DNA from: Phycisphaeraceae bacterium
GTDB lineage: Bacteria > Planctomycetota > Phycisphaerae > Phycisphaerales > UBA1924
DNA length: 64,000 nucleotides
Reading direction: 5' to 3'
NCBI GenBank assembly: GCA_019636795.1
Contig: JAHBWW010000006.1
Location: 39,253 to 103,252, forward strand
The first letter of the stretch is position 1, and the number at the start of each line of letters is the position of its first letter. The notes under the pieces are model-generated. The model saw only the letters and a program-made list of their open reading frames with translations, did no database searches and was not told the origin of the DNA. The position numbers and the translations under genes are program-made. Shown piece after piece: positions 39,368 to 61,356 of this stretch.

Positions 39368-39804
39368 TCGCCAGCCCGGTGCCGTGTGCATACGTGTGAG
39401 TGGGGACGTGGCACCGACTGCAAGCCATGATTCATCCCCCCGTGCCACCCGCCTCCAGTCAGGACTCAGAGCGCGCCAGTCACGACTTGGAGAGTTCCAG
39501 TCATGACTGGAGGAGGGCCATTCGCCCACTCACTATCCACAATTCGGCCCTGGCGCGGTCAGGAACGCGGTTTTGCCCCGCCCGGCTCCCCAGAACTGAA
39601 ATCGGAAGCCCGCCAGAAGCCGCAGGCACCCCAATCGGCGGTATTCACACGGTTCAAGTTAGGAGACATCGGGGCGCTCTGGCTGGAGCCCAACCCTGAC
39701 GGCGCGGCACCGACCGCAATCGCTGATCTCATGCCCCCGAACACCGTCAGCCATGTCTCCTGTCTATACACAAAGCCGCGGTCCGATGGCACGACCCCAA
39801 GCAA

Positions 39805-41025
39805 TTATCTCGTACCGTCGGTGCTGCCCGCCTGCACAGCCGGATCCCGAATCTCCCCCGCAATGGCGGCGACTTCCCGCAGAATGCCGCGCGGCGGTCG
39901 CTGCAGATCCAGCGTGCGAACCCGCACGTTCCGAGCCGCGCCTTCGATGACGTGCGTGACCGAGGTCAATCCGGCATCCGCAGCGTAGATGAGCATCCCG
40001 GACTGCAAGCCAGTCGCGATGAGATACACGAGCATCTGGTACACGTCGGCGTTCTGGTAGCCAGCCGCACTAAGCCGCTTGTATTTCGCATCGCCCACCC
40101 AGAAGATGGTGCCATTCGAGATCAGACTCAGGTCAGGCTTGAGTGGAATGCGTTCCGCAGCATCAAGTCGGAGACGCGGTGACTTATCCGGGAACTCCGC
40201 GAGCGAACATCCAAGCGCTTCTCGCAGAGCCACGCGGAGAAACATCTCGAATACGGCGTTCATGTCGACGAGAAAAGCGTCAGCTCGACGGATGCCGCCC
40301 CCGCAATCAACCGATGCCGAGCGAAGAACCAGCCGGGCGATTCGTAGAGCGGGATCGTAGTGCCGGTTCAACTGCGTGATCATTGGTTCGGGGATGGTGT
40401 GCCTTTGGTAGTGACACAGTTCCACGCCTCCGAAGAGCCTGGCGGCCCGCTGGATCTCATGCTTGATTTTTGAGGACCGCAATGGGAGACGGCGGAGACA
40501 GGCGAGAGCACTAAACAGGATCCGATTCTCGACGATGTCTGTCGTGAAGAGGTCGTGCTCAATCTCGATGGGCGGTGCTTGTCCAAGACGCTGACTCAAC
40601 TGCTCGGAAAAGCGAATTCGACCGCGGGGTGCCGAGAGTGACTCCTCATGCGACCGGTAGCCGGCAAGAAGTCCTCGCCTTGTCGCCCGCTCGATGTTGC
40701 GGCACAAGACAGCAGCGACAAGGTCCATCAGCGTGGCATCGTCTTTCCACGCCGTCTCCATTGGGGACCATTTCACGCGGTCCGCCGCGTACGAGACAAG
40801 GAAGACCACCGAGGACATCGGCATCTTGGGCTGGATCTCGATGGTGACCGATGAGAGCTGAACCACACCGATATGCTGATCCGGTGTAAGATCGACTCGC
40901 CCGGGCAACCCGATCGATGGCTCTATCCGAAGGGTGGGATGCGCGCGGCGGAGCATCGCAACCTCATCGGAGTTGAGGTGCAGCCCAGTGGCGGTGACGT
41001 ACTCAGTCAGCGTCAGACGACGCAT
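39805..41025 (-). CDS. mcrC: McrC-like restriction endonuclease subunit
   Basis: FLVDMNAVFEMFLRVAL and WVGDAKYK (PD-(D/E)xK core as in McrC). Directly downstream of, and overlapping, the McrB-like gene. The track start 41049 is TTG; ATG at 41025. Confidence 0.8.
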   Translation of the reverse strand: MRRLTLTEYVTATGLHLNSDEVAMLRRAHPTLRIEPSIGLPGRVDLTPDQHIGVVQLSSVTIEIQPKMPMSSVVFLVSYAADRVKWSPMETAWKDDATLMDLVAAVLCRNIERATRRGLLAGYRSHEESLSAPRGRIRFSEQLSQRLGQAPPIEIEHDLFTTDIVENRILFSALACLRRLPLRSSKIKHEIQRAARLFGGVELCHYQRHTIPEPMITQLNRHYDPALRIARLVLRSASVDCGGGIRRADAFLVDMNAVFEMFLRVALREALGCSLAEFPDKSPRLRLDAAERIPLKPDLSLISNGTIFWVGDAKYKRLSAAGYQNADVYQMLVYLIATGLQSGMLIYAADAGLTSVTHVIEGAARNVRVRTLDLQRPPRGILREVAAIAGEIRDPAVQAGSTDGTR

Positions 41026-42769
41026 CTTCGTCCTCCGCTTGATCGGCAACGACGTCGTCAGAGGTAACCCGATCTCTCATAGTGTCGTATCGAAACTGGC
41101 TCATCTCACTGGGGTTATCGAAGAACCGATCGGCGAGTGCCGGCATGACCGAGTGGTCCCAGATCTGCTTGGCCCACTCCTCGGTCAGTGCTCTCGGATC
41201 GTCGGTCAGGAAGTGGCTTGGGCCAATTGCTGCGTGCCGATCGTCCACAATCTTGTTCACGCAATCGATCATGTCTGCGAGGTAGACCATGTCTGGCGCG
41301 TTGATGTCAAGGAAGCGTTTAAGGAGTCCATCAATGGGTTTCTCGCCAGGCACGAGATCGATGAAACGGAACCTCCGACGCAGCGCCATGTCGAGCAAGG
41401 CGATTGAGCGATCGGCGGTGTTCATTGTCGCGATGATCAGGAGGTTTCGCGGCAGGCGGAACGGGGCTTCGGAGTACTGGAGCGTGATCGCCTCGTCGCG
41501 GTACTCCAGCAGGAAGAGCAGCTCTCCGAATACCTTGGCGATGTTGCCCCGGTTGATCTCGTCGATGAGCAACACGAAGCGGGCGTCGGGCTCAGCCGCT
41601 GCGCGTATTGCAATCCGCTTGAGTGGTCCGTCCTTGACCTCGAAGTGGTTCGGACCAGCCGGGCGAAAGCCCTCAACAAAATCCTCGTACGCATAGGACG
41701 GATGAAACTGGACGATGGTCACCCGATCCGATGTGCCCGCAAGCGACTCTGCCATCTTGCGAGCGATGAAGGTCTTGCCAGTACCAGGAGGGCCCTGAAT
41801 AATGATCTGGCCCTTCTCGACGAGCAATGCTGCCCAACGCGACAGGGTGTCCGTCGGTTCCAGCATGAGGGTTTCTGCCAGATTGTCGAGCGACTCAATC
41901 ACAGCCGGAGCGTCGCTTGCCGACAGACCTGGACCGGGCTGCGTGATCTTTGGGGATTCGCCGTCTGACTGCTTCTTCGGCTTCGGTTCCTTGGGCTCCT
42001 TCCACTGCTGAATGAAGGGCTGGCGGTAGAAGTGAAAGCCGGCCCCAGCTTCCTTTTCCAGTGCATTTCGGATGACAAGCAAGTCGCGGTCGATGTTCTC
42101 GGTTGCTCCATCTGGCAACAAGTGCATAAAGGTACTTTGGATGGCCTTCTTGTCATTGCGCGATGAGATGTTCTCGAAAGTGTCTGGGAACGCGATGTAC
42201 AGCCAAGCCTCGCGCATCGGCTGGAATGCCTGCAGCGAAGTCTTGAGTCCAAGGACGTCTTCGCGGAACGCCCACGGATCCTCAAGCAGGCGCGTCCGTT
42301 CCGGTTCCAGGAGCTCATGCCAGTGGAGCAGATACTCGTTTACCCAAGCCAGATGCCAAGGTCGGTGCTGGTTGAAACTCTGGTCTCCCGCATAGCCCCT
42401 GGCACCTTCGACCGCCCATTCGGGCACCTCGACAGGCCGATCGCACCAAGCCAGCACCTCGCGGACGTTCTCGATCTTCTTCGGCGCGCCGGTCTGGGTC
42501 GTGAAGATTTGTTGGACGTACATCAACTCTGCAGCGAGTTGCATCGTGTCGTCATCTGCACCGTCGAGCTGATGGCGATACTTGTTGAGGAACGTCCCTT
42601 CCCCTTCATCGAATCGCTGGACAAACATCTCGTGGTGCCGCTGGAGATTCCGCGCCGTCCAGATCTTCCGCTCCGGAGTAAAGAGACTGCCAAAGCCGAC
42701 CAGCGCGGTCTCCCGTACTCGACGGAGAGCTTCGTAGCAAGCGTCTGAACAACCGTTTAGCTTCGCCAT
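41003..42769 (-). CDS. mcrB: McrB-like AAA+ GTPase restriction subunit with large unassigned N-terminal domain
   Basis: IIIQGPPGTGKTFIARKMAE (Walker A), FVLLIDEINRGNIAKVFGELLFLLEYRD (Walker B plus McrB signature), LLIIATMNTADRS. ATG 42769 (MAKLNG). Confidence 0.85.
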   Translation of the reverse strand: MAKLNGCSDACYEALRRVRETALVGFGSLFTPERKIWTARNLQRHHEMFVQRFDEGEGTFLNKYRHQLDGADDDTMQLAAELMYVQQIFTTQTGAPKKIENVREVLAWCDRPVEVPEWAVEGARGYAGDQSFNQHRPWHLAWVNEYLLHWHELLEPERTRLLEDPWAFREDVLGLKTSLQAFQPMREAWLYIAFPDTFENISSRNDKKAIQSTFMHLLPDGATENIDRDLLVIRNALEKEAGAGFHFYRQPFIQQWKEPKEPKPKKQSDGESPKITQPGPGLSASDAPAVIESLDNLAETLMLEPTDTLSRWAALLVEKGQIIIQGPPGTGKTFIARKMAESLAGTSDRVTIVQFHPSYAYEDFVEGFRPAGPNHFEVKDGPLKRIAIRAAAEPDARFVLLIDEINRGNIAKVFGELLFLLEYRDEAITLQYSEAPFRLPRNLLIIATMNTADRSIALLDMALRRRFRFIDLVPGEKPIDGLLKRFLDINAPDMVYLADMIDCVNKIVDDRHAAIGPSHFLTDDPRALTEEWAKQIWDHSVMPALADRFFDNPSEMSQFRYDTMRDRVTSDDVVADQAEDEDASSDAD

Positions 42770-42870
42770 GTGGTCCTTTCTCTGACGTATGGTACATGCC
42801 ATGGAGGCGGGCGGTTGGGGGTCCGGGGGGTCGCGGGTCTGGCACGTTGAGTTGCCGCATATCCTCACTC

Positions 42871-45385: not shown

Positions 45386-45496
45386 GATGCACACCTGCGG
45401 GGGAAATGCAAGAGGGAAGCGTGGAAGGGACGGAATGTTGCGCGCGCGGGTGGGAGATGCGGAGGGAATTGTGGGCAGCGGGGAGGTGGGATGGGG

Positions 45497-45594
45497 GTTG
45501 TTGGCAGGGGTGTTACAAGAGACCAAGACACACCGACCGCTCAGAGCCGCGGATCGGTGGCACGGGGATCGACGGTTTTGGTCGGTGTCACCTG
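45497..45594 (+). repeat. REP-like double-hairpin element, copy 1 (with 5' extension TTGTTGGCAGGGGTGTTACAAGAGACCAAGA)
   Basis: CACACCGACCGCTCAGAGCCGCGGaTCGGTGGCACGGGGATCGACGGTTTTGGTCGGTGTCACC. One base is inserted in the first stem. Confidence 0.9.
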
Positions 45595-45625
45595 CCTATC
45601 CTGCCCGCAACAAGAAGCCAAAGGG

Positions 45626-45690
45626 CACACCGACCGCTCAGAGCCGCGGTCGGTGGCACGGGGGATCGACGGTTTTGGTCGGTGCCACCC
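45626..45690 (+). repeat. REP-like element, copy 2
   Basis: CACACCGACCGCTCAGAGCCGCGGTCGGTGGCACGGGGGATCGACGGTTTTGGTCGGTGCCACC. Stem 1 is CACCGACCGC/GCGGTCGGTG; stem 2 is GGTGGCAC/GTGCCACC. Confidence 0.9.
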
Positions 45691-45729
45691 GCCATCACCA
45701 TTATTGAGCACGTCAATCTCCCATAAATC

Positions 45730-46341
45730 ATGCCATACACACTATTTACATCTCCAGTCGGCTTTAACTGTATCGAGATGACTCGAACGCAGGCAAAGCA
45801 ATTTTTTGAGCATTTCATGAATCAAATGCCGGAGCGTATCCAAATGTTGAGCCTTGAAGTTCGTGAGACATCCGGTTTTGAGGCATGGATTCCGGATGGG
45901 AGTGAACAATCTGTTCTTGGACTTGGGTTATGGCTCAAAGATCAAGCCAAAGCTCGGGAACTCACTGAGGAAGACCGTCAACAAATTGGTATTATCGACG
46001 ACAATCCGCTAAACGAGTGGATTGCAAGAACTCACATCGAAATGTCTGCAAAAACTTACTCGTACAGCATAGATTCTGGCATGTACTTCGGGGAAATTAT
46101 TCGAACCCGTCATCCGGCTACCGCGTGGCGGATCGGGTCAAAACCTAAGCGCGGAGTGAATTATAATCGTCCAGTCGTTGCGACGGAGGATGATTATTTT
46201 ATTATTGATCCAGTTGGGTGGATAGCCAATAGTCTTCATGGCTATTTATTGTATCGTCATGGAGTACCCGGATACGCGTCTGCCAGGAATTTTGACTTGT
46301 TGCGTGACCTGCATGAAAGAGAGCGTCATATTCAGCGATAG
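45730..46341 (+). CDS. hypothetical protein encoded by a conspicuously AT-richer gene
   Basis: 203-aa ORF with an ATG start. Normal mixed composition (K, E, I, N, F, Y frequent), unlike neighbouring genes. No motif recognised. Confidence 0.6.
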   Translation: MPYTLFTSPVGFNCIEMTRTQAKQFFEHFMNQMPERIQMLSLEVRETSGFEAWIPDGSEQSVLGLGLWLKDQAKARELTEEDRQQIGIIDDNPLNEWIARTHIEMSAKTYSYSIDSGMYFGEIIRTRHPATAWRIGSKPKRGVNYNRPVVATEDDYFIIDPVGWIANSLHGYLLYRHGVPGYASARNFDLLRDLHERERHIQR

Positions 46342-46483
46342 GGATCGGAATTGATCAGTTTTACGAGCAATGATACGTATTGTCATTGCCCTTCTGATCT
46401 TGGTCTTTGTTTGTACAACGTTTCCTGATCTCTCTATCTCCCATGACGGCATGAACTGGCTAGTGTGGGTGTGCGTGGACGGC

Positions 46484-46554
46484 AGGTGGCACCGACCGTC
46501 GACTTGGATTGACTTCTTCGTGCCACCGACCGCGGCTTTAAGCGGTCGGTGTGT
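46484..46554 (-). repeat. REP-like element, copy 3 (inverted orientation, divergent spacer)
   Basis: Reverse complement: CACACCGACCGCTTAAAGCCGCGGTCGGTGGCACGaagaagtcaatccaagtcgaCGGTCGGTGCCACC. Confidence 0.85.
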
Positions 46555-46579
46555 TTTCGAGTGAGTCAGTTCGATCGGT

Positions 46580-47260
46580 TCATACATATCCCTCCCACAT
46601 GGCCCAGGCGCGGGGGTCGCCTGGCGGCCAATCGCATGGGACATCTGCTGGATCCTGCTCGTGGCTTCGCTGGCGTGCGAACCACCATCGCGCACTTGAC
46701 CAGCGCCAATCGAGCGGCGCTGCGACCAGACCTCGTGCGACCGGGTTGTGGTGTGTGTAGCGAATGGCTTTATTAAGTTCGGTCTGCTCGCGAACATTGC
46801 GGTCGAAGCCGCCGCCCTTCTGCCAGAATCGGGTCGCTCCATCGGCCCGGACGATCTCTGACGCGAGCGGATCGCCTGAGTGTCGAAGGAAACGAAGAAC
46901 ACGTTGCTGGATCGAGAGTTTAAGGGATTTGAGAACAGGAGCAAGCGGGGATCCGTCAGGTGGAATGAGGAGAAGGTGGGTGTGTTCGGGCATGGCGACC
47001 CAGGCCAGCAACTTGAAGCTCAGTCGGTCTCTGGCTTCGCGGAGCGAACGTGCGAAGAGATCGCGAGCGTCGGGGGAGCCGAGCAGCGGGAGCCGACGTT
47101 CGCAGGAGAATGTTATAAATCGGACGCCGCCCGGAACCTCGCGGCGGGTCATGTGTTTTCGTATGGGATGTGGACTACCGCTCGCATCCGAGGTTGTAGG
47201 CTTGGAGGAGGATGTGGCTTCAGGTCGGGGGTCGCTGTTCATCGCTGCAGCATACCGCAT
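46580..47260 (-). CDS. REP-associated tyrosine transposase (RAYT; IS200-like Y1 HUH transposase family)
   Basis: GGVRFITFSCERRLPLL, MPEHTHLLL (HUH), AIRYTHHNPVARGL (catalytic Tyr + HxNP), WRWSS. Start uncertain: ATG at 47260, 47242 or 47152; the track GTG is at 47320. Confidence 0.8.
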   Translation of the reverse strand: MRYAAAMNSDPRPEATSSSKPTTSDASGSPHPIRKHMTRREVPGGVRFITFSCERRLPLLGSPDARDLFARSLREARDRLSFKLLAWVAMPEHTHLLLIPPDGSPLAPVLKSLKLSIQQRVLRFLRHSGDPLASEIVRADGATRFWQKGGGFDRNVREQTELNKAIRYTHHNPVARGLVAAPLDWRWSSARWWFARQRSHEQDPADVPCDWPPGDPRAWAMWEGYV

Positions 47261-47317
47261 CCGTCGGAGGGGAAATGGATGTGCATTGCGGATGGAACGG
47301 GTTGAAGGTGGGGAAGG

Positions 47318-47380
47318 CACACCGACCGCTCAAAGCCGCGGTCGGTGGCACGGGGGATCGACGGTTTTGGTCGGTGCACC
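47318..47380 (+). repeat. REP-like element, copy 4
   Basis: CACACCGACCGCTCAAAGCCGCGGTCGGTGGCACGGGGGATCGACGGTTTTGGTCGGTGCACC. Abuts the 5' end of the RAYT ORF. Confidence 0.9.
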
Positions 47381-47390
47381 CGCCGGGGAG

Positions 47391-47461
47391 GGGATTGTTG
47401 GCAGGGGTGTTACAAGAGACCAAGACACACCGACCGCTCAGAGCCGCGGTCGGTGGCACGG
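47391..47461 (+). repeat. REP-like element, copy 5 (5' extension as in copy 1; only the first hairpin is present)
   Basis: GGGATTGTTGGCAGGGGTGTTACAAGAGACCAAGACACACCGACCGCTCAGAGCCGCGGTCGGTGGCACGG. Confidence 0.85.
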
Positions 47462-47737
47462 TGAGCGTGGATGGCGAGGGGTGGTTGGTGCCACAACGCT
47501 GTTGGCGCGGGAATCTGGAGTTGTGGGAGAGGGATGAGGCTTTGTGAACTTTCGTTTCCTCTGCCCCTTCGGGGCAGGGTTGGAGAGATGCGGGTCTGTT
47601 CCACGGGTTGCGCTGCGCCCGGCTGGGGCCGGGCTGCGCTTCACCCGTGGCTACAAGCCTTCGCCCCTTCGGGGCGAGGACGTGCGGGAGCGTAATGGGT
47701 ACGACTGCGCGAGCTGATCGGCTGCGAGTCGTGGCGC

Positions 47738-47870
47738 GCGAGGTGGGAGTTGGGGCACGCGAGGTGGGAGTTGTGGCACGCGAGGTGGGAGTTGTGGCAC
47801 GCGAGGTGGGAGTTGTGGCACGCGAGGTGGGAGTTGTGGCATGTGAGGTGGGAGTTGTGGCATGTGAGGG
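47738..47870. repeat. 21-bp tandem repeat array, about 6.3 units
   Basis: GCGAGGTGGGAGTTGTGGCAC repeated head-to-tail at 47738, 47759, 47780, 47801, 47822 and 47843, plus a partial unit. Variants occur only at unit edges (GGGGCAC, GGCAT, GTGAGG). Confidence 0.95.
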
Positions 47871-47962
47871 ACGGGTGTTGTCGCACCGAAGTCGCAGAGC
47901 CGACTTCGGTGGCACGCCGACATCGTGGCACGGGTCATGAGACGGTTCGAAAGGGCGAAGAC

Positions 47963-48025
47963 ACACCGACCGCTCAGAGCCGCGGTCGGTGGCACGGGGG
48001 ATCGACGGTTTTGGTTGGTGTCACC
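47963..48025 (+). repeat. REP-like element, copy 6
   Basis: CACACCGACCGCTCAGAGCCGCGGTCGGTGGCACGGGGGATCGACGGTTTTGGTTGGTGTCACC. Confidence 0.9.
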
Positions 48026-48048
48026 AGCCGGAGAGAGTGGTCGGAGAA

Positions 48049-48070
48049 CCCAGGGATTGGGATCCCTGGG
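48049..48070. repeat. palindromic hairpin repeat, copy a
   Basis: CCCAGGGAT-tggg-ATCCCTGGG embedded in GAGAACCCAGGGATTGGGATCCCTGGGCTTGGGGG. Confidence 0.9.
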
Positions 48071-48226
48071 CTTGGGGGTCGGGTGGGTTTGGTGTTGGGC
48101 ATCATGGATGTTCATGATGGGCCTTGGGCGGCGTATTGCAAGGGGTTTTGGAGGTTGGGTCGGGAACTTGCGAGCGTGGGGGGATGGGGGGAGATTTTGG
48201 GGAGGTCGGGTTGAAGTCGGGGAAGG

Positions 48227-48289
48227 CACACCGACCGCTCAGAGCCGCGGTCGGTGGCACGGGGATCGACGGTTTTGGTTGGTGTCACC
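48227..48289 (+). repeat. REP-like element, copy 7
   Basis: CACACCGACCGCTCAGAGCCGCGGTCGGTGGCACGGGGATCGACGGTTTTGGTTGGTGTCACC. Its 3' end supplies the stop codon of the PPTase ORF. Confidence 0.9.
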
Positions 48290-49172
48290 AGCCGGAGAGA
48301 GTGGTCGGAGAACCCAGGGATTGGGATCCCTGGGCTTGGGGGAGTGTGGTTGGAGAACCCAGGGATTGGGATCCCTGGGCTTGGGGGTCGGTGGCATGGG
48401 GAGGGTGGATGGCGAGTGCGGCGGTGTGGGCAGGGTCGGCGGGATCGAGTGCGAGGTTGGTCAGGTGGATGGGTGCGGGGCTCTTGAGCGCGTTGGGGCT
48501 GGGGAGCGCGACGGTATTGCGGCTGGGCAGTGCGACGGCACCTGGGCTTGGGGGAATGACGGTATTGGGGCTGGGGAGCATGATGGTATCGGGGCGGGTG
48601 TCGATGGTTTGGGGGTTGGTGGCGAAGCCGGTGCCGAGGGCTTTGAGGAGGGCTTCTTTGCGGGTCCAGAGTTGGAAGAAGTGCTGCGGTTGTGCGGTGG
48701 GCGGGAGTGCGGCGTGGGCTGCGAGTTCGTCCGGGTGCATGAAGATGCGGGCGGCGTCGAGGGTTGCGTGGGCGGGGTCGATGTGGGCCAGGTCGATGCC
48801 GAGGCGGCGGTGCGGGGCGAGCGCGAGGGCGGCGATGTTGCCAGCGGACGCGGTCGAGAGGTGGATGTGTGTGAGGTGATGGGGGGCGGTGATGGTGGGG
48901 CAGCCTAGGGCGTCGTGGGTGATGCGGATGTCGGCGGGGGCGAGGTTGAAGGTGCGGGCGATGAATTGGGTGCGCCACCAGCGGCGGCAGATGAAGCGGG
49001 CGCGGTGAAGACCAGAGCGCAGCGATGCGGCGCGGGTTTGCTCGGCTGGGTCGAGGGTTGCGGCGAGGGCGTCGAGGGGTTCGCTTATGGTGTCGAGCGC
49101 GATCATGGCGGTCAGGACGCCATCGAAGGGCTCGGGCAGCGCGAGGGGCGAGGTGGAGAGTGCGAAGGTCAC
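48285..49172 (-). CDS. Sfp-type 4'-phosphopantetheinyl transferase (with repeat-encoded C-terminal tail)
   Basis: RRLGIDLAHI and FFQLWTRKEALLKALGTG, the PPTase motifs. Lies 30 nt downstream of the NRPS stop. GTG start at 49172 (alternative ATG 49106). Confidence 0.85.
   Translation of the reverse strand: MTFALSTSPLALPEPFDGVLTAMIALDTISEPLDALAATLDPAEQTRAASLRSGLHRARFICRRWWRTQFIARTFNLAPADIRITHDALGCPTITAPHHLTHIHLSTASAGNIAALALAPHRRLGIDLAHIDPAHATLDAARIFMHPDELAAHAALPPTAQPQHFFQLWTRKEALLKALGTGFATNPQTIDTRPDTIMLPSPNTVIPPSPGAVALPSRNTVALPSPNALKSPAPIHLTNLALDPADPAHTAALAIHPPHATDPQAQGSQSLGSPTTLPQAQGSQSLGSPTTLSGW
48313..48334. repeat. palindromic hairpin repeat, copy b
   Basis: CCCAGGGAT-tggg-ATCCCTGGG. Confidence 0.9.
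48358..48379. repeat. palindromic hairpin repeat, copy c
   Basis: CCCAGGGAT-tggg-ATCCCTGGG. Confidence 0.9.
48498..48617. repeat. imperfect 24-bp tandem repeat x5 inside the PPTase ORF tail
   Basis: Units GCTGGGGAGCGCGACGGTATTGCG / GCTGGGCAGTGCGACGGCACCTGG / GCTTGGGGGAATGACGGTATTGGG / GCTGGGGAGCATGATGGTATCGGG / GCGGGTGTCGATGGTTTGGGGGTT. Confidence 0.7.
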
Positions 49173-49202
49173 GGGGGGATTGTTGGCGCGCGGGGGTTGG
49201 CT

Positions 49203-52200
49203 TCAGGTTGAGGAGGAGGTGTGAATGGGGGCGGGGGTGAGGATGCGGTCGAGTTCGCGTGCCAGGACGCCGGCGGAGCGCGGGCTAAAGAAGTTGAGAT
49301 GGTCGCAGGGGAGTGGATGGACGTTGAGCTCGCCGCGGGCGAAGTTTTCCCAGCCGAGGGCGTGGAGGTCTTTGTATTCGTCTTCCTGATGCTGGGCGCG
49401 GAGGAGGGAGATGGGTCCGGCCCAGGGGCGGGGGCGGTATTTGAAGTAGGCGGAGAGGTTGGCGAAGCGCACTGGCCAGGGGCGGAGGCGGCGCGGGATG
49501 GGGAGGTTGAAGCGTGCGCAGAGTTTGTAGGCGTTGCGTTCGACGGGGCCGATCCAGAGCGTTCGGAGGAAGTGGCGCGGGCCGGAGCGGAGTTGATAGA
49601 TGAAGCGTTTGCGGAGGGTGCGCTGGAGCGAGCGACCGGCGGCCTGTCGGAGGACTCGGGTGTCGATCATGATGATGCGTTCGACGGGCTGATCGAGTTG
49701 TGTGAGGCGGTGGGCGATTTCGAGTGCGATGGCGCCGCCGAGGGAGTAGCCGCCGAGGATGTAGGGGCCTTGCGGTTGGATGGTGCGGATGGCGTCGAGG
49801 TAATGATCGGCCATGTCTTCGATGGTGGTCAGCGGGGTTGCGTCGCCGTGGACACCGCGTGCCATGATGCCGTAGAGGGGCTGATCGGGGGAGAGGCCGG
49901 GGAGAAGGCGTTCGAGGAAGAGGACGTTGCCGTCCATGCCGTGGATGCAGAAGAAGGGGATGCGTGAGCCGGTGGTGCGGAAGGGGGCGATGACGGAGGT
50001 GTCGTGTGGGGATTGATTGCCTTCGATGAGGTCGCGCAGGGCGGCGGGGGTGGAGGCGCGGAGGAGGGCGGCGAGGGGGATGGTCTTTTTGAACTCGGCT
50101 TCGATGCGTGCGACGAGTTTGACGGCGAGGAGGGAGTGGCCGCCGAGGTCGAAGAAGGATTGAGCAGGGCCGACGGCGGGGAGGGCGAGGAGGGATTGGA
50201 AGATTTCGCAGATGCGGCGTGTGGTGGGATCGGTGATGGGCTCGGTGGTGATGATGTTGGTGGGGTCGGGGAGGGCGGTGCGGTTGAGTTTGCCGTTGGG
50301 GGTGCGCGGGAGGTGATCGAGGGGGATGAGTGCGGCGGGGAGCATGTAGTCGGGGAGGCGGCCTTTGAGGAAGCGGCGGATTTCGGGCGTGTGGTCGGTG
50401 GGCTCGGTGCTGCCGTTGGCTGGGACGAAGTAGGCGTGGAGTGCGGTGCCGGTGTGGGTGTTGCGCGCGATGACGGCGGCTTCGAGGACGGCGGGGTGCA
50501 TGCTGATGGTGTGTTCGACTTCGCCGAGTTCGACGCGGAAGCCTCGGATTTTGGTCTGGTTGTCGGCGCGGCCGAGGTATTCGAGGTTGCCTTGGTCGTT
50601 CCAGCGTGCGAGGTCGCCGGTGTTGAAGAGGGTTGATGCGTTGAGTTCGGGGATGGGGATGGGGTTGGGGTTGGGGAGGAAGCGTTCGGCGGTGAGGTCG
50701 GGGCGGTTGTGGTAGCCATCGGCGAGGCATGGTCCGGCGACGTGGATGATGCCGGGGACGTTGGGGGGGGTTGGGTGGAGGCGATGATCGAGGAGGGCGA
50801 TTTTGACGTTGGAGATGGGGCGGCCGATGGGAATGACACCGGCGTCGATGTCGGCGGAGGTGACGACGTGTGCGGTGGCGTCGGCGGCGATTTCGGATGA
50901 GCCGTAGAGGTTGATGAGTTCGACGTGCGGGAGTGCGGCGAGGAAGCGCTGGGCGCGGTTCCAGGAGAGTGCTTCGCCGCTGGAGACGCAGATGCGGAGG
51001 TGCGGGAGGTGTTTGTGGAGGTCTGGGTGTGTGTCGAGGATGGCTTCGAGGAGTGCGGGGACGACGGTGATGCGTGAGATTTTGTTTTTGCGGAGTGCGG
51101 CGACGAGTGCGCGTGGGTCTTTGACGGTTTGGTGTGGGAGGATGTTGATGGGGACGCCGGCGAGGAGTGGACCGAAGGCTTCCCAGACGTGATCGACGAA
51201 GTTGATGGTGGTCTGCCAGGAGGTGGTTTCGTTTGGTTGGAAGGGTCGCCAGTTCCACATCCATCGGAAGCGGTTGATGGCGCCGGCGTGTGTGCCGCGG
51301 ACGCCTTTGGGGAGGCCCGTGGAGCCGGAGGTGTAGGTGATGTAGGCGACGGTTGCGTCGGGCGATGGGAGGGGGGCGTTGGAGGGTTTGATGGTGGCGA
51401 TGTTGATGACGGTTGCGAGGCTGGGAGGGAGAACGGCGGCGGTGTCGGCGGTTGCGAGGACGAATGGGGGTGCGGCGTCGCGGAGGATGTGTTCGAGGCG
51501 TGCTGCGGGGTAGGTGGGATCGAGTGGGACGTAGCAGCAGTTGGCGCGGAGGACGCCGAGGAGGGCGGTGGGGAGCTGGAGCGATGGTTCGATGCAGACT
51601 GCGATGGGGGTGTTGGGCGAGACGCCGAGGGAGATGAGGTGGGCGGCGACTGCGGCGCTCTGGCGGTCGAGGGCGGCGTAGGTGAGCGAGGAGGAGTTGT
51701 ATCGGTATGCGGTGGCGTTTGGGGTTTTGCGGGCTTGCTCGGCGAAGAGGCTTTGGATGGTGGCGGGAGGGTTTGAGGCGATGGTTTGATTGGGGAGCGT
51801 GATGAGGCGAAGGCGATCGGCGTCGTCGGTGATTTCGATTGCGTCGATGGAGAGGGCCGGATCGGCGGCGAGGCGGCGCATGGTGCGCAGGGTGTCATCG
51901 AGGAGTTGGCGGACGAGTGCGGGATCGACGGCTGCGGTGTCGAATCGGGCTTCGATGTCGAATGTTTTCCATGGGGTGACCATGAGGGTGAGGGGGACGT
52001 CGGTCCAGCCGAAGGATTTTGGGGATTCGATGGAGATTGGTGATGCGCGGCCGGAGCGTGCGTCGTCGAGGGGGTAGTTGCCGAAGACGACGATGGAGTT
52101 GAAGAGTGGGGTGCGTGGTGGGAAGTGTGCGCAGCGGTGGATGTCGGAGAGGGGGGTTTGTTCGAAGCGGGTGGAGTCGGAGATTTGTTTCTGGATTGAG

Positions 52201-53156
52201 GAGAGGAAGTCGGCGATGGTTGTGTTGCGGGGGATCTGGGCGCGGACGGGTGCGGCGTTCATGAGGAGGCCGACGATGCGTTCGATGTCTGGGGTGTCGA
52301 GTGAGCGGCCTGAGAAGGTGGTGCCGAAGATGATGTCGTCGTTGCGTGTGTAGCGGCTGAGGACGAGGGTCCATGCGGCGAGCATGAGTGTGCTGAGGGT
52401 GAAGCGATTTTCGCGTGCGAACTGCCTGATGTGTGTGTAGTCGGAGTCGGGGAGAGTTGCGGGGATGACGGTGGGTTGTCTGGAGCGTCCGGGGATGTCG
52501 TGGTCGGGGCGAGAGGCGGGGAGTGGAGTGGGGGTATCGAGGCCGGCGAGGAGAGCGGTCCAGTAGCGCTCGGCATCGGAAGCGGGGAAGCGGGCCAGAG
52601 CGGCGAGGGCGCTTTGGAATGAAGCGGGGGGAGGGAGATCGGGAGCGTGGTTCTGGGTGAGTGCGTGGTAGGTTGCGTGGACGTCGGCGAGGATGATGGA
52701 GACGGACCATGCGTCGATGAGGATGTGGTGGAATGACCAGATGACGCGGTGGAGGTTGTGTTCGAGACGCGCGAGGGCGAAGCGCATGAGTGGGGGGCGG
52801 GTGAGTTTGAAGAGTGTGGCGCGATCGCGCGCGAGATAGTCGTCGAGTGGTGGCGCGTCGGGGGTGGACCAGTCGAGGTTGGTCCAGGGGAGGTTGACGT
52901 GCTTGCGGATGATCTGGAGGGGGCGGTCGTCTTTTTGCCAGATGAATTGTGCGCGGAGGGCGGGGCAGCGGGCGATGACGGATTCCCATGCGCGCTGATA
53001 TGCGGCGGGATCGATGGGGCCACGGATGAGGAAGGTGAATTGCTCGAAGTATGCGATGGAGTCCGGGGCGTGAGCGATTTCGAGCAGCGTGAACTGCTGC
53101 ATTGGAGTCAGAGGGAGGATGTCCTGAACGTTTTCAAGTGCTGGGCGGTCACTCAT
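49203..53156 (-). CDS. non-ribosomal peptide synthetase, terminal module C-A-T-TE (1317 aa)
   Basis: ATG 53156 overlaps the upstream NRPS stop by 8 nt (GATGAGTGA). C domain: LPLTPMQQ, SFHHILIDAWS. A domain: AYITYTSGSTGLPKGV, NLYGSSE, NTGDLARW, GRADNQTKIRGFRVELGEVE, PNGKLNR. T domain: FFDLGGHSLLAV. TE domain: GYSLGGAIALE. Confidence 0.95.
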   Translation of the reverse strand: MSDRPALENVQDILPLTPMQQFTLLEIAHAPDSIAYFEQFTFLIRGPIDPAAYQRAWESVIARCPALRAQFIWQKDDRPLQIIRKHVNLPWTNLDWSTPDAPPLDDYLARDRATLFKLTRPPLMRFALARLEHNLHRVIWSFHHILIDAWSVSIILADVHATYHALTQNHAPDLPPPASFQSALAALARFPASDAERYWTALLAGLDTPTPLPASRPDHDIPGRSRQPTVIPATLPDSDYTHIRQFARENRFTLSTLMLAAWTLVLSRYTRNDDIIFGTTFSGRSLDTPDIERIVGLLMNAAPVRAQIPRNTTIADFLSSIQKQISDSTRFEQTPLSDIHRCAHFPPRTPLFNSIVVFGNYPLDDARSGRASPISIESPKSFGWTDVPLTLMVTPWKTFDIEARFDTAAVDPALVRQLLDDTLRTMRRLAADPALSIDAIEITDDADRLRLITLPNQTIASNPPATIQSLFAEQARKTPNATAYRYNSSSLTYAALDRQSAAVAAHLISLGVSPNTPIAVCIEPSLQLPTALLGVLRANCCYVPLDPTYPAARLEHILRDAAPPFVLATADTAAVLPPSLATVINIATIKPSNAPLPSPDATVAYITYTSGSTGLPKGVRGTHAGAINRFRWMWNWRPFQPNETTSWQTTINFVDHVWEAFGPLLAGVPINILPHQTVKDPRALVAALRKNKISRITVVPALLEAILDTHPDLHKHLPHLRICVSSGEALSWNRAQRFLAALPHVELINLYGSSEIAADATAHVVTSADIDAGVIPIGRPISNVKIALLDHRLHPTPPNVPGIIHVAGPCLADGYHNRPDLTAERFLPNPNPIPIPELNASTLFNTGDLARWNDQGNLEYLGRADNQTKIRGFRVELGEVEHTISMHPAVLEAAVIARNTHTGTALHAYFVPANGSTEPTDHTPEIRRFLKGRLPDYMLPAALIPLDHLPRTPNGKLNRTALPDPTNIITTEPITDPTTRRICEIFQSLLALPAVGPAQSFFDLGGHSLLAVKLVARIEAEFKKTIPLAALLRASTPAALRDLIEGNQSPHDTSVIAPFRTTGSRIPFFCIHGMDGNVLFLERLLPGLSPDQPLYGIMARGVHGDATPLTTIEDMADHYLDAIRTIQPQGPYILGGYSLGGAIALEIAHRLTQLDQPVERIIMIDTRVLRQAAGRSLQRTLRKRFIYQLRSGPRHFLRTLWIGPVERNAYKLCARFNLPIPRRLRPWPVRFANLSAYFKYRPRPWAGPISLLRAQHQEDEYKDLHALGWENFARGELNVHPLPCDHLNFFSPRSAGVLARELDRILTPAPIHTSSST

Positions 53157-56100
53157 CCGTGAACTCGCTTGCGTCGAAGAGTGCGGACAGACGTGCGAGG
53201 CCTTCATCGTCGAGGCCTGCGAGGGGGAAGGCGCTGGCTGCTGCGGGAGCGGTGTTTGATGCTGCTGCGGCGTCGCGGATGATGTGGGCGATTGCGGTAG
53301 AGAAGTTTGCAGCGAGCGACTGGATCGTGGATTCGTTGTGGAGCGCGGAGCTTGCGATCCAGTCGATGCGGAGTACGTCATCGACGATCATGGCGTCGAC
53401 TTCGATGATGGCTGGGCGTGTGTTTGAAGGGTGGCGTGTTGGGCCACAGGAAGTGCGTGCGATGCGGAGGCTCCAGCCCTGGGAGAGGGATTGATCGAAT
53501 TGTCCAAGGTAGTTGAATGAGAGTGCGGCGGGCGCGGCCTGGCGGATAGCGCTCCCGAGATCGGTGGTATCCCATGAGCGTGCGAGGCCGAAACCGATGC
53601 CGCGTGCAGGGATCTGTCGGAGGTGTTCGCGTGCAGCGTTGATTGCGGAGGCGGGGTTGGTCATTGTGTGAAGTGGGAGGGCGACGGGGAAGAGGGTGGT
53701 GAACCAGCCGACGGTGCGTGAGACGTCGAGATCGTCGGAGATTGCTTCGCGGCCATGGCCCATCATGTCGATGCGAAGGGTGTCGCGGCTGACCCATTGG
53801 CGGAGGGTGATGCCGAGTGCTGCGAGGAGAATGTCGTTGATCTGTGCGTGATATGAGGCTGGGACATCGTGGAGGAGTGCGCGCGTTGCGGCGGGGTCGA
53901 TGATGGTGGTGTGGACGATGGCGGATGCTTCGGTGTTGTCGGCTGCGGGGTGATCGAGGGGGATCTGCGGTGAGGCGGCGAGTTCGCGCATCCACCATTC
54001 GCGCTGTTGCGGCGAAGCGGAGATTGAGGGTGTGTGTTGCTCGAGCGCGTGTGCCCAGTCGCGGAGGGAGTGGGTCTTTTGTGGGAGGGAGGGGGACTGG
54101 CCCTGCGAGATGTGTTCGCAGGCGAGCATGAGGTCTTCGATGATGAGGCGCCAGGAGAAGCCATCGAGGACGAGGTGATGTGCTGCCATGAGGAGGCGTG
54201 CGGAGCCGCCGTTGCGTTCGCGGAAGAGGACTGCGCCGAAGAGGGGGCCTTGTGCGAGATTGAAACCTGTCTGGAGGGTGGTGCCGTGGCGTTCGACGGA
54301 GGCATCGGCGGCGGGGGTGGAGAATTGATCGACGAGCGCGGTGTGGAATGCGAGATTGGTTGCGTCGGGGGTGTCGAAGTGCTGGGTCCAGGTCTGATCG
54401 TTTCGTTGGTAACGGAGGCGCAGGGCATCGTGATGATTGACGACGGCGAGCAGTGCGCGTCGGAAGGTGAGGTCGTCGATGCGTGAGGGGACTTCGAGCA
54501 TTATGGCTGCGTTCCAGTGCGATGGCTGGGCGAGGTTCTGATCGAGGAGCCACTGCTGGATTGGAATGAGCGGGGAGTGTCCGGTGACGGGGCCCTGATG
54601 TGCGGTGAGTGCTGCGGCTTGTCGAGCGTGCGGGGCGAGGAGTGCGATTGTTGGATGATCGAAGAGTTGGTTTGGGGTGATGAGGATGCCGTGGCGGCGT
54701 GCGCGTGCGCAGATCTGAATGCTGAGGATGGAGTCGCCACCGATTTCGAAGAAGTTGTCGTTGAGTGCGACGGAGTCGAGGCGGAGGACTTGAGCCCAGA
54801 CGGCGGCGAGGGTTGACTCGAGATCGGTCGCGTGCTCGGCGGCAGAGCGATCGGCGGCGGATGCGGCGGCGCGCGAGGGGGCAGGGAGTGCGCGGCGGTC
54901 GAGTTTGCCGTTGGAGGTGACGGGGAGCGAGTCGAGGGTGACGAAGGCTGCGGGGACCATGTATTCGGGGAGTGTGCGCGCGAGTGCGGCGCGGAGGGTT
55001 GCGTGATCGGCGCTACCGACGATGTATGCGACGATGCGTGGGCTGGCGGGGATGTCTTCGCGTGCGATGACGACGGCGTGCTGGACGTTGGGCTGGTGAG
55101 CGATTGCGTGTTGGATTTCGCCGAGTTCGATGCGGAAGCCTCGGATCTTGACCTGATCGTCGAGTCGGCCGAGGTATTCGATGGATCCATCGTTGAGGAA
55201 GCGTGCGAGGTCGCCGGTTTTGTAGAGTTTTTCGGCAGGGCGGAATGGGTGCTGGATGAAGCGTTCGGCGGTGAGTTCTGGTCGGTTGACGTATCCGATG
55301 CCGACCTGGATGCCTCCGATGTAGAGCTCGCCGGGAGTGCCGATGGGGGCGAGTTCGAGGCGTGGATCGAGGACGAGCAAGTGGGTGTTTGCGATGGGGA
55401 AGCCGATGGGGATGATGTTTCGTGGGTCGCGTGGGGCGCATTCCCATGCGGTGACATCGACTGCGGCCTCGGTTGGGCCATAGAGGTTTGCGAGGCGTAC
55501 AGCGGGGAGGATGGTGAAGAATCGCTGAACGAGATCGAATGGGAGGGCTTCGCCGGAGCAGACGACGCGGCGGAGGGAGGTGATGCGTGGGAGGGTTGGT
55601 TCTTCGAGGAATGCGCGGAGCATGGAGGGGACGAAGTGCATGACGGAGACGTTGTGGTGCTGGATGATGTGTGCGAGGTATGCGGTGTCGCGGTGACCTT
55701 CTGGTTTTGCGACGACGATTGCGGCGCCGGTGATGAGTGGCCAGAAGAACTCCCAGACGGAGACGTCGAAACTGAAGGGAGTTTTCTGAAGGACGCGATC
55801 GCTGGGGGTGAGTTGGTATTCGTCCTGCATCCAGAGGAGGCGGTTGATGATGGCGCGGTGGGCGTTGAGTGCGGCTTTGGGGCGGCCGGTGGAGCCTGAG
55901 GTGAAGATGGCGTATGCGGGGTCGTCGGGAGTTGCGGTGGAGGCGGGGGGGGTTGAGGGGGAAGTTGCGAGCGACGGATCGTCGAGGAAGAGAGTTGGTC
56001 CTTGCCAGTTGAGGGTGGCGAGTTGGGCGGAGGAGGATGGAAGCGTGGGGTCGGATGCGGAGGTGATGAAGGCGGCGAGGGCGGCGTCGTCGATCATGTT

Positions 56101-59100
56101 GGCGAGGCGCTCGGGGGGATAGGTTGGATCGAGGGGGACGTATGCGGCGCCTGCGCGCATGACGCCGAGGAGGGCGGCGACGAGCTCGGTGCTGCGCTGG
56201 AGGCAGACTCCGACGAGGGAGTGTGGTTTGACGCCGAGGGCGAGAAGTCGGTGTGCGATGCGGTTTGCGTTGGCGTCGAGTTGTGCGTAGGTGGTGGTCT
56301 GGTCGCTGAAGATGACGGCTGGTGCGTGAGGGGTTGCGGCTGCCTGTTGTGCGATGAGTTGATCGAGGGTGAGGTTTTGTGGATAGGGTCGTGCGGGGCC
56401 TGCGAAGTCATCGAGGAGTTGTCGTTTTTCGCTTTTTGGGAGCATGGCTGCGGGGGAGGCGGGCTGGTGAGGGTCGGCGGCGATGGCGCGGAGTGCGGCG
56501 AGGTAGTATCGGCCGATCTGCTTGACCTGATCGCGGGTCATGTGTTTGTTGTTGTAGTTGAGGACGACATCAAGGCGTTTGTCGTATGCGTCGACGCGGA
56601 AGTTTGCGACGAGGACGTAGTGGAATGGGTCGGTGAAATCGACGCGGAGGAACTCGATATCGTCGCGTCCGGCGAGGCGGTCGTAGACGTGGAAATGTGT
56701 GTAGTTGAAACCGGTTTCGAAGAGGTTGTCCTGACCTGCGCGGCCGAGATCGCGGAGGAGTTGTGCGCCGATGTATCGGCGGTGTGGGAGTGCGGCGAGT
56801 TCGGCGTGGTGTGCTGATTGTGCGAGTTCGAACCAAGTCTGGTCGGCGACGTGGAGGCGGTAGGGCATGGTGTTGAGGTGGTTGCCGAGGGAGGAGTCGC
56901 CGCCCGGGTCTTCGATGCGGCCGTTCATGACGAGGCCTGTGACGACGTCGTCCTGATGAGCGAGCATGCCGAGGACGCGCGTGTGCGCGGCGAGGTAGAA
57001 GGACTTGAGCGGGATTGCGAGTTCGCGTGCGCGTTCGATGACGCGCTGGTTGACGTCGGCGGGGATGGGGACGATGAGGTCGAGATTGCGTGCGACGGGG
57101 ACATCGGCTCCGACGCCGGGGATGCGCGGGACTTGTGTGAAGGGGGCGTCGTCCATGAGTCCGGCCCAGAAAGTCTGGGCGTCGTGGGAGTTGAGGGTGG
57201 TGCGTTCGAGGGCGACGAAATCGCGGTATGTGATGGGGTTTGGTGTGAGATCGAGATCGGGGGCGCCGGCGAGCATGTTGACGTAGCGGGAGAAGATTTC
57301 GGTCATCATGTTCGACGTGCTCCAGCCGTCGAGGATTGCGTCGTGGAAGGTGATGCCGAACTGGAAGGTGTCGGGGGAGCGTTTGTGGACGGTGTATTTG
57401 AGGAGCGGGGGGCGAGACCAATCGAATTCGTATTCGGCTTCGTCGTCGATCCATCGGGCGAGGAGGGCTTGCTGCGATTCGGAGGGGAGGTGGGAGATAT
57501 CGTGGTATTCGATTGGGGCTGAGGCGGCAGCGTGTACGAGTTGCATTGGTTCGGCGAAGGTGCCGAGGTCGAAACTGGTGCGGAGGATGGGATTGCGTGC
57601 GACGACCTGATCGACGGCGCGCTGGAGGAGCGTGAGGTCGAGTCGTGCGCGGACATGGAGGCTCATGGCGACTTGATAGAGGTATGAGCCGATGGCGCGT
57701 TCGCTGTGAAAGACCATGCCGCTCTGGAGTGCGCTGAGGGGGTAGGCGTCGATGATGTCGGGGGGGAGTTTTGCGCGGTCGTTTGCGGAGATGAGTTGGA
57801 ATGGCTGGGTGCGCGTGGTGGCGGTGGATTGAGCAGTTGCAGCGGTTGAGGCGAGGGCGCGGACGGTGGGCGCGCGGAAGAGGTCGTGGACTGCGATATG
57901 GATGTCTGCGTCGGAGGCTTTTGCGACGATGCGGAGGGCGAGGATTGAGTCGCCGCCGATTTCGAAGAAGTTGTCGTCGATGGAGACACGCGGGAGGTTG
58001 AGGACCTGGGCCCAGATTTGTGCGAGTTGTGCTTCGGTGTCGGAGGTTGGGGCGACAAAGGGGCGATCGGAAGCGAAGGCGGAGCCGCGGGGCGGGGCGG
58101 GGAGTGCGCGGCGATCGAGTTTGCCATTTGCGGTGACGGGGAGAGCATCGAGGGTGACGAAGGCAGCGGGGACCATGTATTCGGGGAGGAGTTTTGCGAG
58201 TGCATCGCGGAGTGCGCTGTGGGTGGCGCTGCCGACGATGTATGCGACGAGGCGTTTGGTGCCTGGGACATCTTCGCGTGCGAGAACGACGGCTTCCTGA
58301 ACGTCGGGTTGGGCGGAGAGGACGAATTCGATTTCGCCAAGTTCGATGCGGAAGCCTCGGATCTTGACCTGGTCGTCGAGTCGGCCGAGGTATTCGATGG
58401 AGGCATCGGGGAGGAAGCGTCCGAGGTCTCCGGTTTTGTACATTTTCTCGCCGGGGCGGAATGGGTTCTGGATGAAGCGATCGGCGGTGAGTTCTGGTCG
58501 GTTGACGTAACCCATGCCGACCTGTATGCCTCCGATGAAGAGTTCGCCGGGGACGCCGGTTGGTGTTGGGGTCAGGTGATCGTCGAGTGCGTACATGAAG
58601 GTATTTGGGACGGCGCTGCCGATTGGGACGATGCCGCGTGGGTCGTTGGGGTGGCATTCCCATGCGGTGACATCGACGGCGGCCTCGGTTGGGCCATAGA
58701 GGTTGGCGAGGTGAGCGTTTGGGAGGCGCGAGAAGAATCGTTCGACGAGATCGAAGGGGAGTGCTTCGCCGGAGCAGACGACGCGGCGAATGGTGGTGCA
58801 ACTGGTGACGTTGCGCTCTTCGATGAAGACGCGGAGCATTGAGGGGACGAAGTGGAGGACAGTGACGGCGTGGTGTGCGATGAGGTCTACGAGGTAGGCG
58901 CTGTCGCGGTGGCCTTCGGGCTTGGCGACGACGATGGTGGCGCCGGTGATGAGTGGCCAGAAGAACTCCCAGACGGAGACGTCGAAGGAGTATGGTGTTT
59001 TCTGGAGGACGCGGTCGGTGGGGGTGAGTTGATAGTGCTCCTGCATCCACATGAGGCGGTTGATGATTGCGACATGTGCGTTGGCGGCGCCTTTTGGTTT

Positions 59101-61260: not shown

Positions 61261-61356
61261 AGAGCGCTCCTGCAAAGGGAATCGTGCACGCCGAGGGTGC
61301 ACGGCATGATGAGATTGGATCGGTAAGTCGGACGGAGAGGCGCGATCGGCGTGCGA

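Follow-up and report, generated by a model that had tools for sequence, protein, structure and literature searches.

Knowledge of repetitive extragenic palindromic (REP) sequences and of their accompanying REP-associated tyrosine transposases (RAYTs) rests almost entirely on Enterobacteria, Pseudomonas, and Stenotrophomonas. A stretch of 64,000 nucleotides from contig JAHBWW010000006.1 of a Phycisphaeraceae bacterium (the window) features a gene with the hallmarks of a HUH-Y1 transposase between two inverted copies of a hairpin repeat. This locus raises the question of whether the gene and the repeats form a REP/RAYT system, an insertion sequence (IS) with its own hairpin ends, or a set of host hairpins to which the transposase is incidental. 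It is highly probable that the window locus is a REP/RAYT system, or 'REPtron', in which an intact rayT gene is bracketed and surrounded by its presumed REPs.

The RAYT Protein

The protein encoded between the two repeats is a RAYT (TnpA-REP, a class 2 TnpAY1 protein), as determined by a curated model, sequence motifs, and fold. The initial annotation had pointed to MPEHTHLLL and AIRYTHHNPV as Y1/HUH hallmarks, and both are present in a minus-strand open frame at 46580..47320. This frame encodes 246 amino acids, and the numbering of the 246-residue open reading frame (ORF) is used for the RAYT motifs. The ORF was originally given as 46580–47260; the open frame is indeed there, but the likely gene is 46580..47242 on the minus strand, with 220 codons plus a stop codon, and it is assigned to a HUH-Y1 single-strand DNA endonuclease on the basis of NF047646, the structure 4ER8, the motifs, and dN/dS. 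The curated NCBIfam equivalog NF047646 (REP_Tyr_transpos) matches over model positions 3–146 of 146 (E 2.3e-25) and scores 89.2 bits, above its cut-off of 80. A sequence search of solved structures returned a sole match, E. coli TnpA-REP 4ER8 (E 3.3e-6).

The protein features a HuH motif, H113-T-H115, a WQ motif at residues 166–167, and a Y-x3-NP motif, Y188...N192-P193. The alignment to 4ER8 places HTH on HMH, Y188 on Y115, and N192 on N119. Both HuH histidines are invariant in 17 sequences; in a 38-sequence alignment this holds for one of them, and the other is nearly invariant. The WQKGGGFDRN block is invariant among the 17 homologs, and its Gln is nearly invariant in the 38-sequence alignment. 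In both alignments the Pro of Y-x3-NP is invariant and the Tyr and Asn are nearly invariant. PMC6006769 gives Y-x3-NP as the signature of class 2 (RAYT) and Y-x3-Q as that of IS200. The E. coli residues that contact the guide, W94, Q95, and R104, align to the invariant W166, Q167, and R177, and E. coli E100/H101 align to D173/R174; D/R-type substitutions at this pair are reported for RAYT subclasses 2.5 and 2.7 in the same source. A homolog encoded on a 650-kb contig, P0075, carries a Cys in place of the catalytic Tyr (RCIHRNP) and may, from its sequence, be an inactive or repurposed RAYT.

An AlphaFold model built from the 38-sequence alignment has a predicted local distance difference test score (pLDDT) of 90.2 and a predicted template modeling score (pTM) of 0.81. 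A fold search with this model returned 4er8_A at rank 1 (E 1.8e-10, target TM score 0.72), and the next match was ISDra2 (E 5e-6). IS200/IS605 transposases, including ISDra2, IS608, and IS200, occupy ranks 2–30, all below 4ER8. The ratio of nonsynonymous to synonymous substitution (dN/dS) is 0.11–0.37 against four orthologs, with dS saturated or near it, and rayT is considered functional because these values reflect purifying selection. RAYT genes typically occur in one copy per genome. The 64-kb window holds one rayT copy, and homolog clusters lie on 1–3 contigs each.

The identical protein is deposited as 'transposase [Phycisphaeraceae bacterium]' (P0001), which is encoded on a 336-kb contig, starts at position 47152, and is 190 amino acids long. 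A conserved N-terminal PIRK(R/H)M block of the homologs sits upstream of this start, and relatives of 218–220 amino acids align over the extension. For these reasons the start of rayT is probably M27 at position 47242, which gives the 220-residue protein, and the deposited P0001 probably begins 30 codons too late. Some homologs have already been named 'REP-associated tyrosine transposase' by NCBI and JGI.

The REP Hairpin

The REP consists of a perfect 10-bp stem and a conserved 8-nucleotide (nt) loop, with an unpaired tag at the foot of the hairpin. A hairpin of the form CACCGACCGC-N8-GCGGTCGGTG lies beyond both ends of rayT, at 46524–46551 on the minus strand and 47320–47347 on the plus strand. 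The two hairpins are inverted and 93% complementary over 40 nt. Inverted repeats were found at these coordinates and none are expected in 100 dinucleotide-preserving shuffles, so the flanking repeats are real. The repeat on the 3′ side of rayT (copy C, minus strand, 46481..46554) has, in plus-strand coordinates, module 2 at 46481–46497, the CGTGC tag at 46519–46523, and the hairpin at 46524–46551; it is an exact match to the pattern and scores 56.7 bits with the covariance model described below. The repeat on the 5′ side (copy D, plus strand, 47318..47384, 64.8 bits) has its hairpin at 47320–47347, a GCACG tag at 47348–47352, and module 2 at 47369–47384 with a 1-nt deletion. Two inverted flanking copies had been proposed as the same element of about 63 nt. 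Both exist; copy C is, however, about 74 nt long. Its hairpin, tag, and terminal GGTCGGTGCCACC module recur in copy D, but its spacer is longer and unrelated.

The comparison loci have no overlap with the window, and dispersal was therefore read from related genomes, with the window's own genome represented by its 64 kb. When one genome per species was scanned for exact matches to the hairpin arms and GGCAC, together 24 specified bases, the 32-nt hairpin and tag were found in at least 120 stretches from 30 species-level assemblies. All of these are metagenome-assembled genomes (MAGs) of Phycisphaerales/Phycisphaeraceae, and in each the stretches are spread over many contigs; among the matches listed, JBGTSD has 29 copies in 17 stretches and BJHL01 has copies on 6 contigs. 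Positions that the scan left free are conserved as well: the loop reads TCARAGCN, and a G follows the tag in 129 of 139 copies. A covariance model found 218 copies in these stretches and the window together. The tag, CGTGC on the canonical strand, is present at the foot of the hairpin as GCACG on the opposite strand in 196 of the 218.

The hairpin is structurally constrained. The helix is paired in 98.7% of cells and 6 of its 10 pairs feature changes on both sides; these pairing and covariation values were reached by 0 of 500 shuffles and by no slid control. Among the 57 copies whose 5′ arm is altered, pairing is retained at 73 of the 79 changed stem positions, and 54 of the 57 keep GCAC(G/A). 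The z-scores for DNA folding of the window copies are −2.2 to −2.9 in seven of eight and −1.25 in copy A, which has a bulge. The copies are also mostly extragenic: coding frames, assigned by a rough home-made gene caller based on codon usage, hold 58 of 188 copies (31%) against 75% of the sequence (binomial p 3e-37). The flanking hairpin is thus a member of a dispersed, extragenic, and structurally constrained repeat family, with dispersal and bias seen in related genomes. A CRISPR (clustered regularly interspaced short palindromic repeats) array was rejected in view of the irregular spacing (97, 108, 265 nt and more), the mixed orientation, and the single dispersed copies in other genomes. 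Additionally, an excess of the GGCACG motif downstream of REPs (0.18 vs 0.044 per 60 nt) was dropped because neighboring copies confound it and a similar excess is present upstream.

Association of REPs with rayT

The REP family accompanies rayT in other genomes. Searches with tblastn found rayT homologs in six of the listed stretches. In four of these (loci L030, L023, L053, and L010) rayT lies between a minus-strand and a plus-strand REP, as in the window, and in L020 and L022 REP arrays are present on both sides of the gene. The closest relative (L123/L124, 80% identity) and JAHBXM (L122) feature the same REP(−)-rayT-REP(+) bracket, which brings the bracket to seven other genomes (L023/L121, L122, L123/L124, L030, L053, and L010). 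The arrangement of a rayT with flanking REPs that the initial annotation had recognized therefore stands, with the curated model passed and the bracket repeated elsewhere.

The bracket has a defined polarity. The unpaired tags of the two REPs that flank rayT in the window face outward, and these REPs are the only inverted pair in the window. Among the stretches listed, neighboring copies at most 150 nt apart are arranged as '−+' in 41 cases, as '+−' in 0, and as direct repeats in 25. The centers of the '−+' pairs are 39–75 nt apart, except for one pair at 2 nt that is a single palindromic site scored on both strands. The outward-tag polarity of the bracket is that of the dispersed inverted doublets, and the doublets look like gene-less derivatives of the bracket because the geometry is the same.

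Two of the loci record a recent change. JAHBXL (L121) and JAHBXM (L122) are syntenic and encode identical RAYT proteins, with two tandem REPs in the former and three in the latter at a 52-nt period. The region between rayT and the Dus gene (10694–10795 in L121, 10694–10847 in L122) differs by one REP unit of 52 nt. The REP number next to rayT has changed recently between these two genomes.

The association could also be explained by an autonomous element of the IS200/IS605 type, in which the gene and two subterminal hairpins move together and the dispersed hairpins are solo ends or miniature inverted-repeat transposable elements (MITEs). The inverted bracket resembles the ends of such an element, and the window locus is close to McrBC genes in a stretch where the GC content is lower. 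The neighbors of rayT differ in every lineage examined: a phosphopantetheinyl transferase (PPTase) and nonribosomal peptide synthetase (NRPS)-like genes in the window, Dus and an aldo-keto reductase in JAHBXL/JAHBXM, and genes for RND efflux in a contig from JGI. A tblastn search for synteny with five neighbor genes of the window gave no matches in any of the loci. The protein, however, has the Y-x3-NP motif and not the Y-x3-Q given for IS200 in PMC6006769, it passes the RAYT-specific NF047646 model, and 4ER8 outranks every IS transposase structure. No TnpB-like ORF or Pfam match is adjacent to rayT, and the occurrence of homolog clusters on 1–3 contigs each is unlike that of multicopy IS elements. 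Additionally, the hairpins far outnumber the genes and lie mostly away from any rayT, and a scan of viral contigs for the REP gave 0 matches. An autonomous IS200/IS605-type element is considered quite unlikely.

A second explanation holds that the hairpins serve mainly the host, for example as terminators, mRNA stabilizers, or protein-binding sites, and are maintained by host selection, with the transposase as an incidental or decayed passenger. In its favor, an identical 32-nt core flanks RAYTs in L020 and L022 that are only 50–58% identical to the protein of the window, while synonymous sites are saturated. The copies are extragenic, and the left copy C scores as terminator-like behind a plus-strand ORF at 45730–46341. 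A T-rich tail is present only at this copy, however, most copies lack a T-run, and a search of Rfam at permissive E-values over 44.5–49.5 kb returned chance-level matches only. The host-element explanation leaves unaccounted for the recurrent bracket around rayT, the purifying selection on an intact catalytic site, the conservation of an unpaired tag at the place from which RAYTs take their guide, and the strict single polarity of the doublets, and it is regarded as very improbable. Co-option of the hairpins by the host is compatible with a REP/RAYT system and not exclusive of it.

Proposed Mechanism and Points Against the REP/RAYT Assignment

The steps of the proposed mechanism are drawn from E. 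coli TnpA-REP and the IS200/IS605 enzymes, as described in PMC6006769. By homology, the RAYT would act as a monomeric HUH-Y1 nuclease that binds the REP hairpin in single-stranded DNA and reads the unpaired tag at its foot (5′-CGTGC on the canonical strand). It would then cut and rejoin DNA next to the tag by means of a covalent tyrosine-DNA intermediate formed through Tyr188, and may in this way copy or maintain REPs and doublets around the chromosome.

Several points weigh against the assignment to a REP/RAYT system. The initial annotation had named the Pfam Y1_Tnp model PF01797 as a check on the ORF; the model does match residues 71–141 (E 0.0027), but its 18.3 bits are below the gathering score of 23. 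A precomputed PF01797 match is present in most homologs, and the fold of the window protein agrees with Y1_Tnp. The middle residue of the HuH motif is Thr in the window protein and Val in most homologs, and Thr is not among the residues given for this position in class 2 in PMC6006769. The tag is GTGC where the canonical tag is GT[AG]G, so that the position matches and the fourth base differs. The alignment used for covariation was fitted by the covariance model and for that reason leans towards structure. The eight copies in the window span only 2.8 kb, and several share flanks or are local duplicates with 100% identity; because of this clustering and duplication, transposition in the genome of the window is not demonstrated. 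For the window protein, binding and cleavage, what the tag does, and activity at present are inferred.

Heterodimeric Doublets and Composite Units

The inverted doublets feature two stem types. Heterodimers of the main stem type and a variant, most often CACCGACCGT/ACGGTCGGTG, make up 36 of 40 inverted doublets, while direct pairs are mostly homotypic. In the doublet partners the stem CACCGACCGC occurs with the loop TCARAGCM and the stem CACCGACCGT with the loop GCARAGCC. Heterodimeric doublets are present in L020, L035, L046, L055, L091, L110, and others.

A second module follows some of the hairpins. Module 2 (GGTCGGTGCCACCYGCC) is found after about one REP copy in eight; its 17-nt pattern occurs 25 times in at least 12 assemblies, and 23 of the occurrences lie downstream of a same-strand tag at a distance of up to 60 nt. 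In its canonical-strand reading, module 2 consists of a GTGG tag and the 5′ stem arm CACCGACC, and the partner arm is absent. The initial annotation described a REP unit with two stems. A composite unit, which joins a full REP to a half-REP, is a real sub-architecture; the second 'stem', however, folds weakly and inconsistently, while the first hairpin is the conserved and covarying structure and is perfect in nearly all copies. The composite unit is a minority form because module 2 occurs only 25 times, 23 of them downstream of a tag. The window-specific spacer joined to module 2 (GGGGATCGACGGTTTTGGTYGGTG) had 0 matches in a scan of metagenomes.

A more speculative proposal, which is judged doubtful, is that the Phycisphaerales carry one ancient REP/RAYT lineage, with a 32-nt core that is identical in at least 30 species while RAYT identity is about 50%, and with the non-canonical GTGC as the guide. 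A subset of its REPs would carry the half-REP, whose arm might compete with that of the hairpin and thereby switch the structure, or might give the enzyme a second site to recognize or cleave. If this proposal is true, it would represent a REP architecture that has not been described before.

Comparison with Known Systems

The closest characterized system is TnpA-REP of E. coli with its REPs and bacterial interspersed mosaic elements (BIMEs), represented by 4ER8 and assigned to TnpAY1 subclass 2.2 in PMC6006769. The window system resembles it in the fold and in the HuH, WQ, and Y-x3-NP motifs. Additionally, both systems have inverted REPs on either side of the gene, in both the REP folds into a hairpin whose foot carries an unpaired tag, and, as in the Y/Z BIMEs, most doublets are heterodimers that combine two stem types. 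The two proteins have only 22% sequence identity, however, and unlike the E. coli protein that of the window is extended by about 30 amino acids at the N-terminus and, at the C-terminus, by a Trp-rich segment in which a CD-PPGD motif is conserved. D/R replaces E/H as the guide-contact pair, and the tag is GTGC in place of GTAG. The REP of the window has a perfect helix of 10 bp and a conserved loop of 8 nt, whereas the E. coli REP has a long bulged stem.

The REPIN-RAYT systems of Pseudomonas (PMC3116915, PMC5581495) share inverted doublets 45–55 nt apart with the polarity of the rayT bracket. The REP sequence persists across species in both, and homologs are counted here as clusters on 1–3 contigs and not per genome. 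Unlike these systems, the window has direct arrays and composite units, and the gene neighborhood of rayT lacks conservation across the sampled lineages. The GTAG-tagged REP super-family (PMC3733652) consists of tagged stem-loops with a stem of 5–13 bp and a loop of 2–20 nt, which form clusters and dimers, rarely head-to-tail (HT) dimers, and are associated with RAYTs. The Phycisphaerales family is similar in these features, but it differs in the C at the fourth base of its tag and in the presence of module 2. IS200/IS605 elements such as IS608 and ISDra2 share the HUH-Y1 fold and recognize a hairpin and guide in single-stranded DNA. They differ in having Y-x3-Q, in forming dimers, in being multicopy, and in often carrying TnpB, and none of these features is seen here.

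GTAG-type REPs with RAYTs were reported in the Planctomycetes-Verrucomicrobia-Chlamydiae (PVC) group in 2013 (PMC3733652). The presence of REP/RAYT systems in this group is therefore not new, and homologs of the window protein are already annotated as RAYTs. A search of the literature library found no paper that connects Phycisphaerae with RAYTs or REPINs. That the core is identical in 30 species is notable because REPs are called species-specific in PMC6006769; long persistence of REP-RAYT systems is known (bioRxiv 10.1101/2021.07.10.451892).

REP Copies in the Window

The covariance model was trained on 70 copies, all from other genomes. In the window it identifies exactly eight copies, which are confined to 45521–48268 and of which seven are on the plus strand and one is on the minus strand; nothing credible above noise was found by this model in the remaining 60 kb. 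All eight lie outside called genes. The plus-strand matches are 45521–45571, 45618–45667, 47310–47359, 47418–47467, 47874–47923, 47954–48003, and 48219–48268, and the minus-strand match is 46512–46561. The initial annotation saw one copy on each side of rayT, which is correct, but this pair is not alone and represents two of the eight copies clustered at 45.5–48.3 kb.

The eight copies are designated A to H along the window, and all except copy F are followed by module 2 or a near variant of it. Copy A (45529..45596, plus strand, 54.3 bits) has a 1-nt bulge in its hairpin and module 2 at 45580–45596. Copy B (45626..45693, plus strand, 63.2 bits) is a full composite unit with the hairpin at 45628–45655 and module 2 at 45677–45693. 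Upstream of rayT and beyond copy D, copy E (47426..47499, plus strand, 66.1 bits) has its hairpin at 47428–47455, a different spacer, and a degenerate module 2 at 47483–47499. In copy F (47884..47916, plus strand, 31.4 bits) the stem CACCGAAGTCG/CGACTTCGGTG differs yet still pairs, and the loop and GCACG are kept. Copies G (47962..48029, plus strand, 65.8 bits) and H (48227..48293, plus strand, 65.5 bits) are composite units within a local duplication of about 265 nt, and H is the duplicate of G.

Part of this cluster grew by ordinary segmental duplication and not by the enzyme. The segments 47997–48078 and 48261–48342, at copies G and H, are 100% identical over 82 nt, and 45488–45552 and 47385–47449 are 95% identical, including 41 nt of non-REP sequence. 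The duplication that holds copies G and H spans 47997–48387, and its 45-nt repeats contain the palindrome CCCAGGGATTGGGATCCCTGGG. A 21-nt tandem array of about 8 units (TGGGAGTTGTGGCACGCGAGG) is located at 47702–47890. Its unit holds GTGGCACG, which corresponds to the last stem bases and the REP tag, and the REP model matches weakly inside it at 11–12 bits. The array may have been seeded from the tail of a REP.

Genomic Setting

The REP cluster is placed among a DUF2961 gene, an ORF without a Pfam match, rayT, and a phosphopantetheinyl transferase gene. The ORF without a Pfam match (45730–46341, plus strand, 203 amino acids) is located between copies B and C in the lowest-GC kilobase of the window (0.536), and this region may be foreign DNA. 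A McrBC-type restriction pair at 39805–42868 on the minus strand, which encodes an AAA_5 ATPase of 621 amino acids and an McrC protein of 414 amino acids, lies about 4 kb from the REP cluster. Just downstream of the McrBC genes is a degenerate REP remnant at 39407..39446 on the minus strand, which features the tag, spacer, and module 2 and no intact hairpin; the covariance model gives 7.4 bits nearby. On the other side of the cluster, 48285–61302 on the minus strand holds the phosphopantetheinyl transferase (ACPS superfamily) followed by giant ORFs of 1392 and 2717 amino acids, whose translation looks NRPS-like.

The GC skew of the window is extreme, at about −0.2 to −0.4 over 1–36 kb, mostly near 0 (−0.13 to +0.19) over 36–44 kb, and +0.25 to +0.49 over 44–64 kb, with a dip to +0.10 at 46–47 kb. 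Long ORFs are on the plus strand to the left and on the minus strand to the right, and transcription converges on the region of the REP cluster. The sign of the skew and the strand pattern of the ORFs together indicate that the coding strand is strongly C-rich, and the third-position skew reaches −0.75 in the NRPS-like genes. Other Phycisphaerales stretches have a weaker skew, and a few are similar (JAHBXK, JAXMAK, and CAYNSB).

Implications

The general picture of REP systems is unchanged by this locus, which also gives a probable correction to the start codon of a deposited protein. With the covariance model and the consensus, REPs can be annotated in MAGs of Phycisphaerales, whose assemblies they probably break. 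Two peculiarities of the lineage, the GTGC tag and the half-REP module, are of biochemical interest. The Phycisphaerae have a well-defined REP family, marked by a perfect stem, a loop that is conserved, a tag that varies from the canonical one, doublets of strictly one polarity, and a composite sub-form. It offers an independent system in a little-studied lineage for testing the way in which RAYTs read their guide and the persistence of REP populations.

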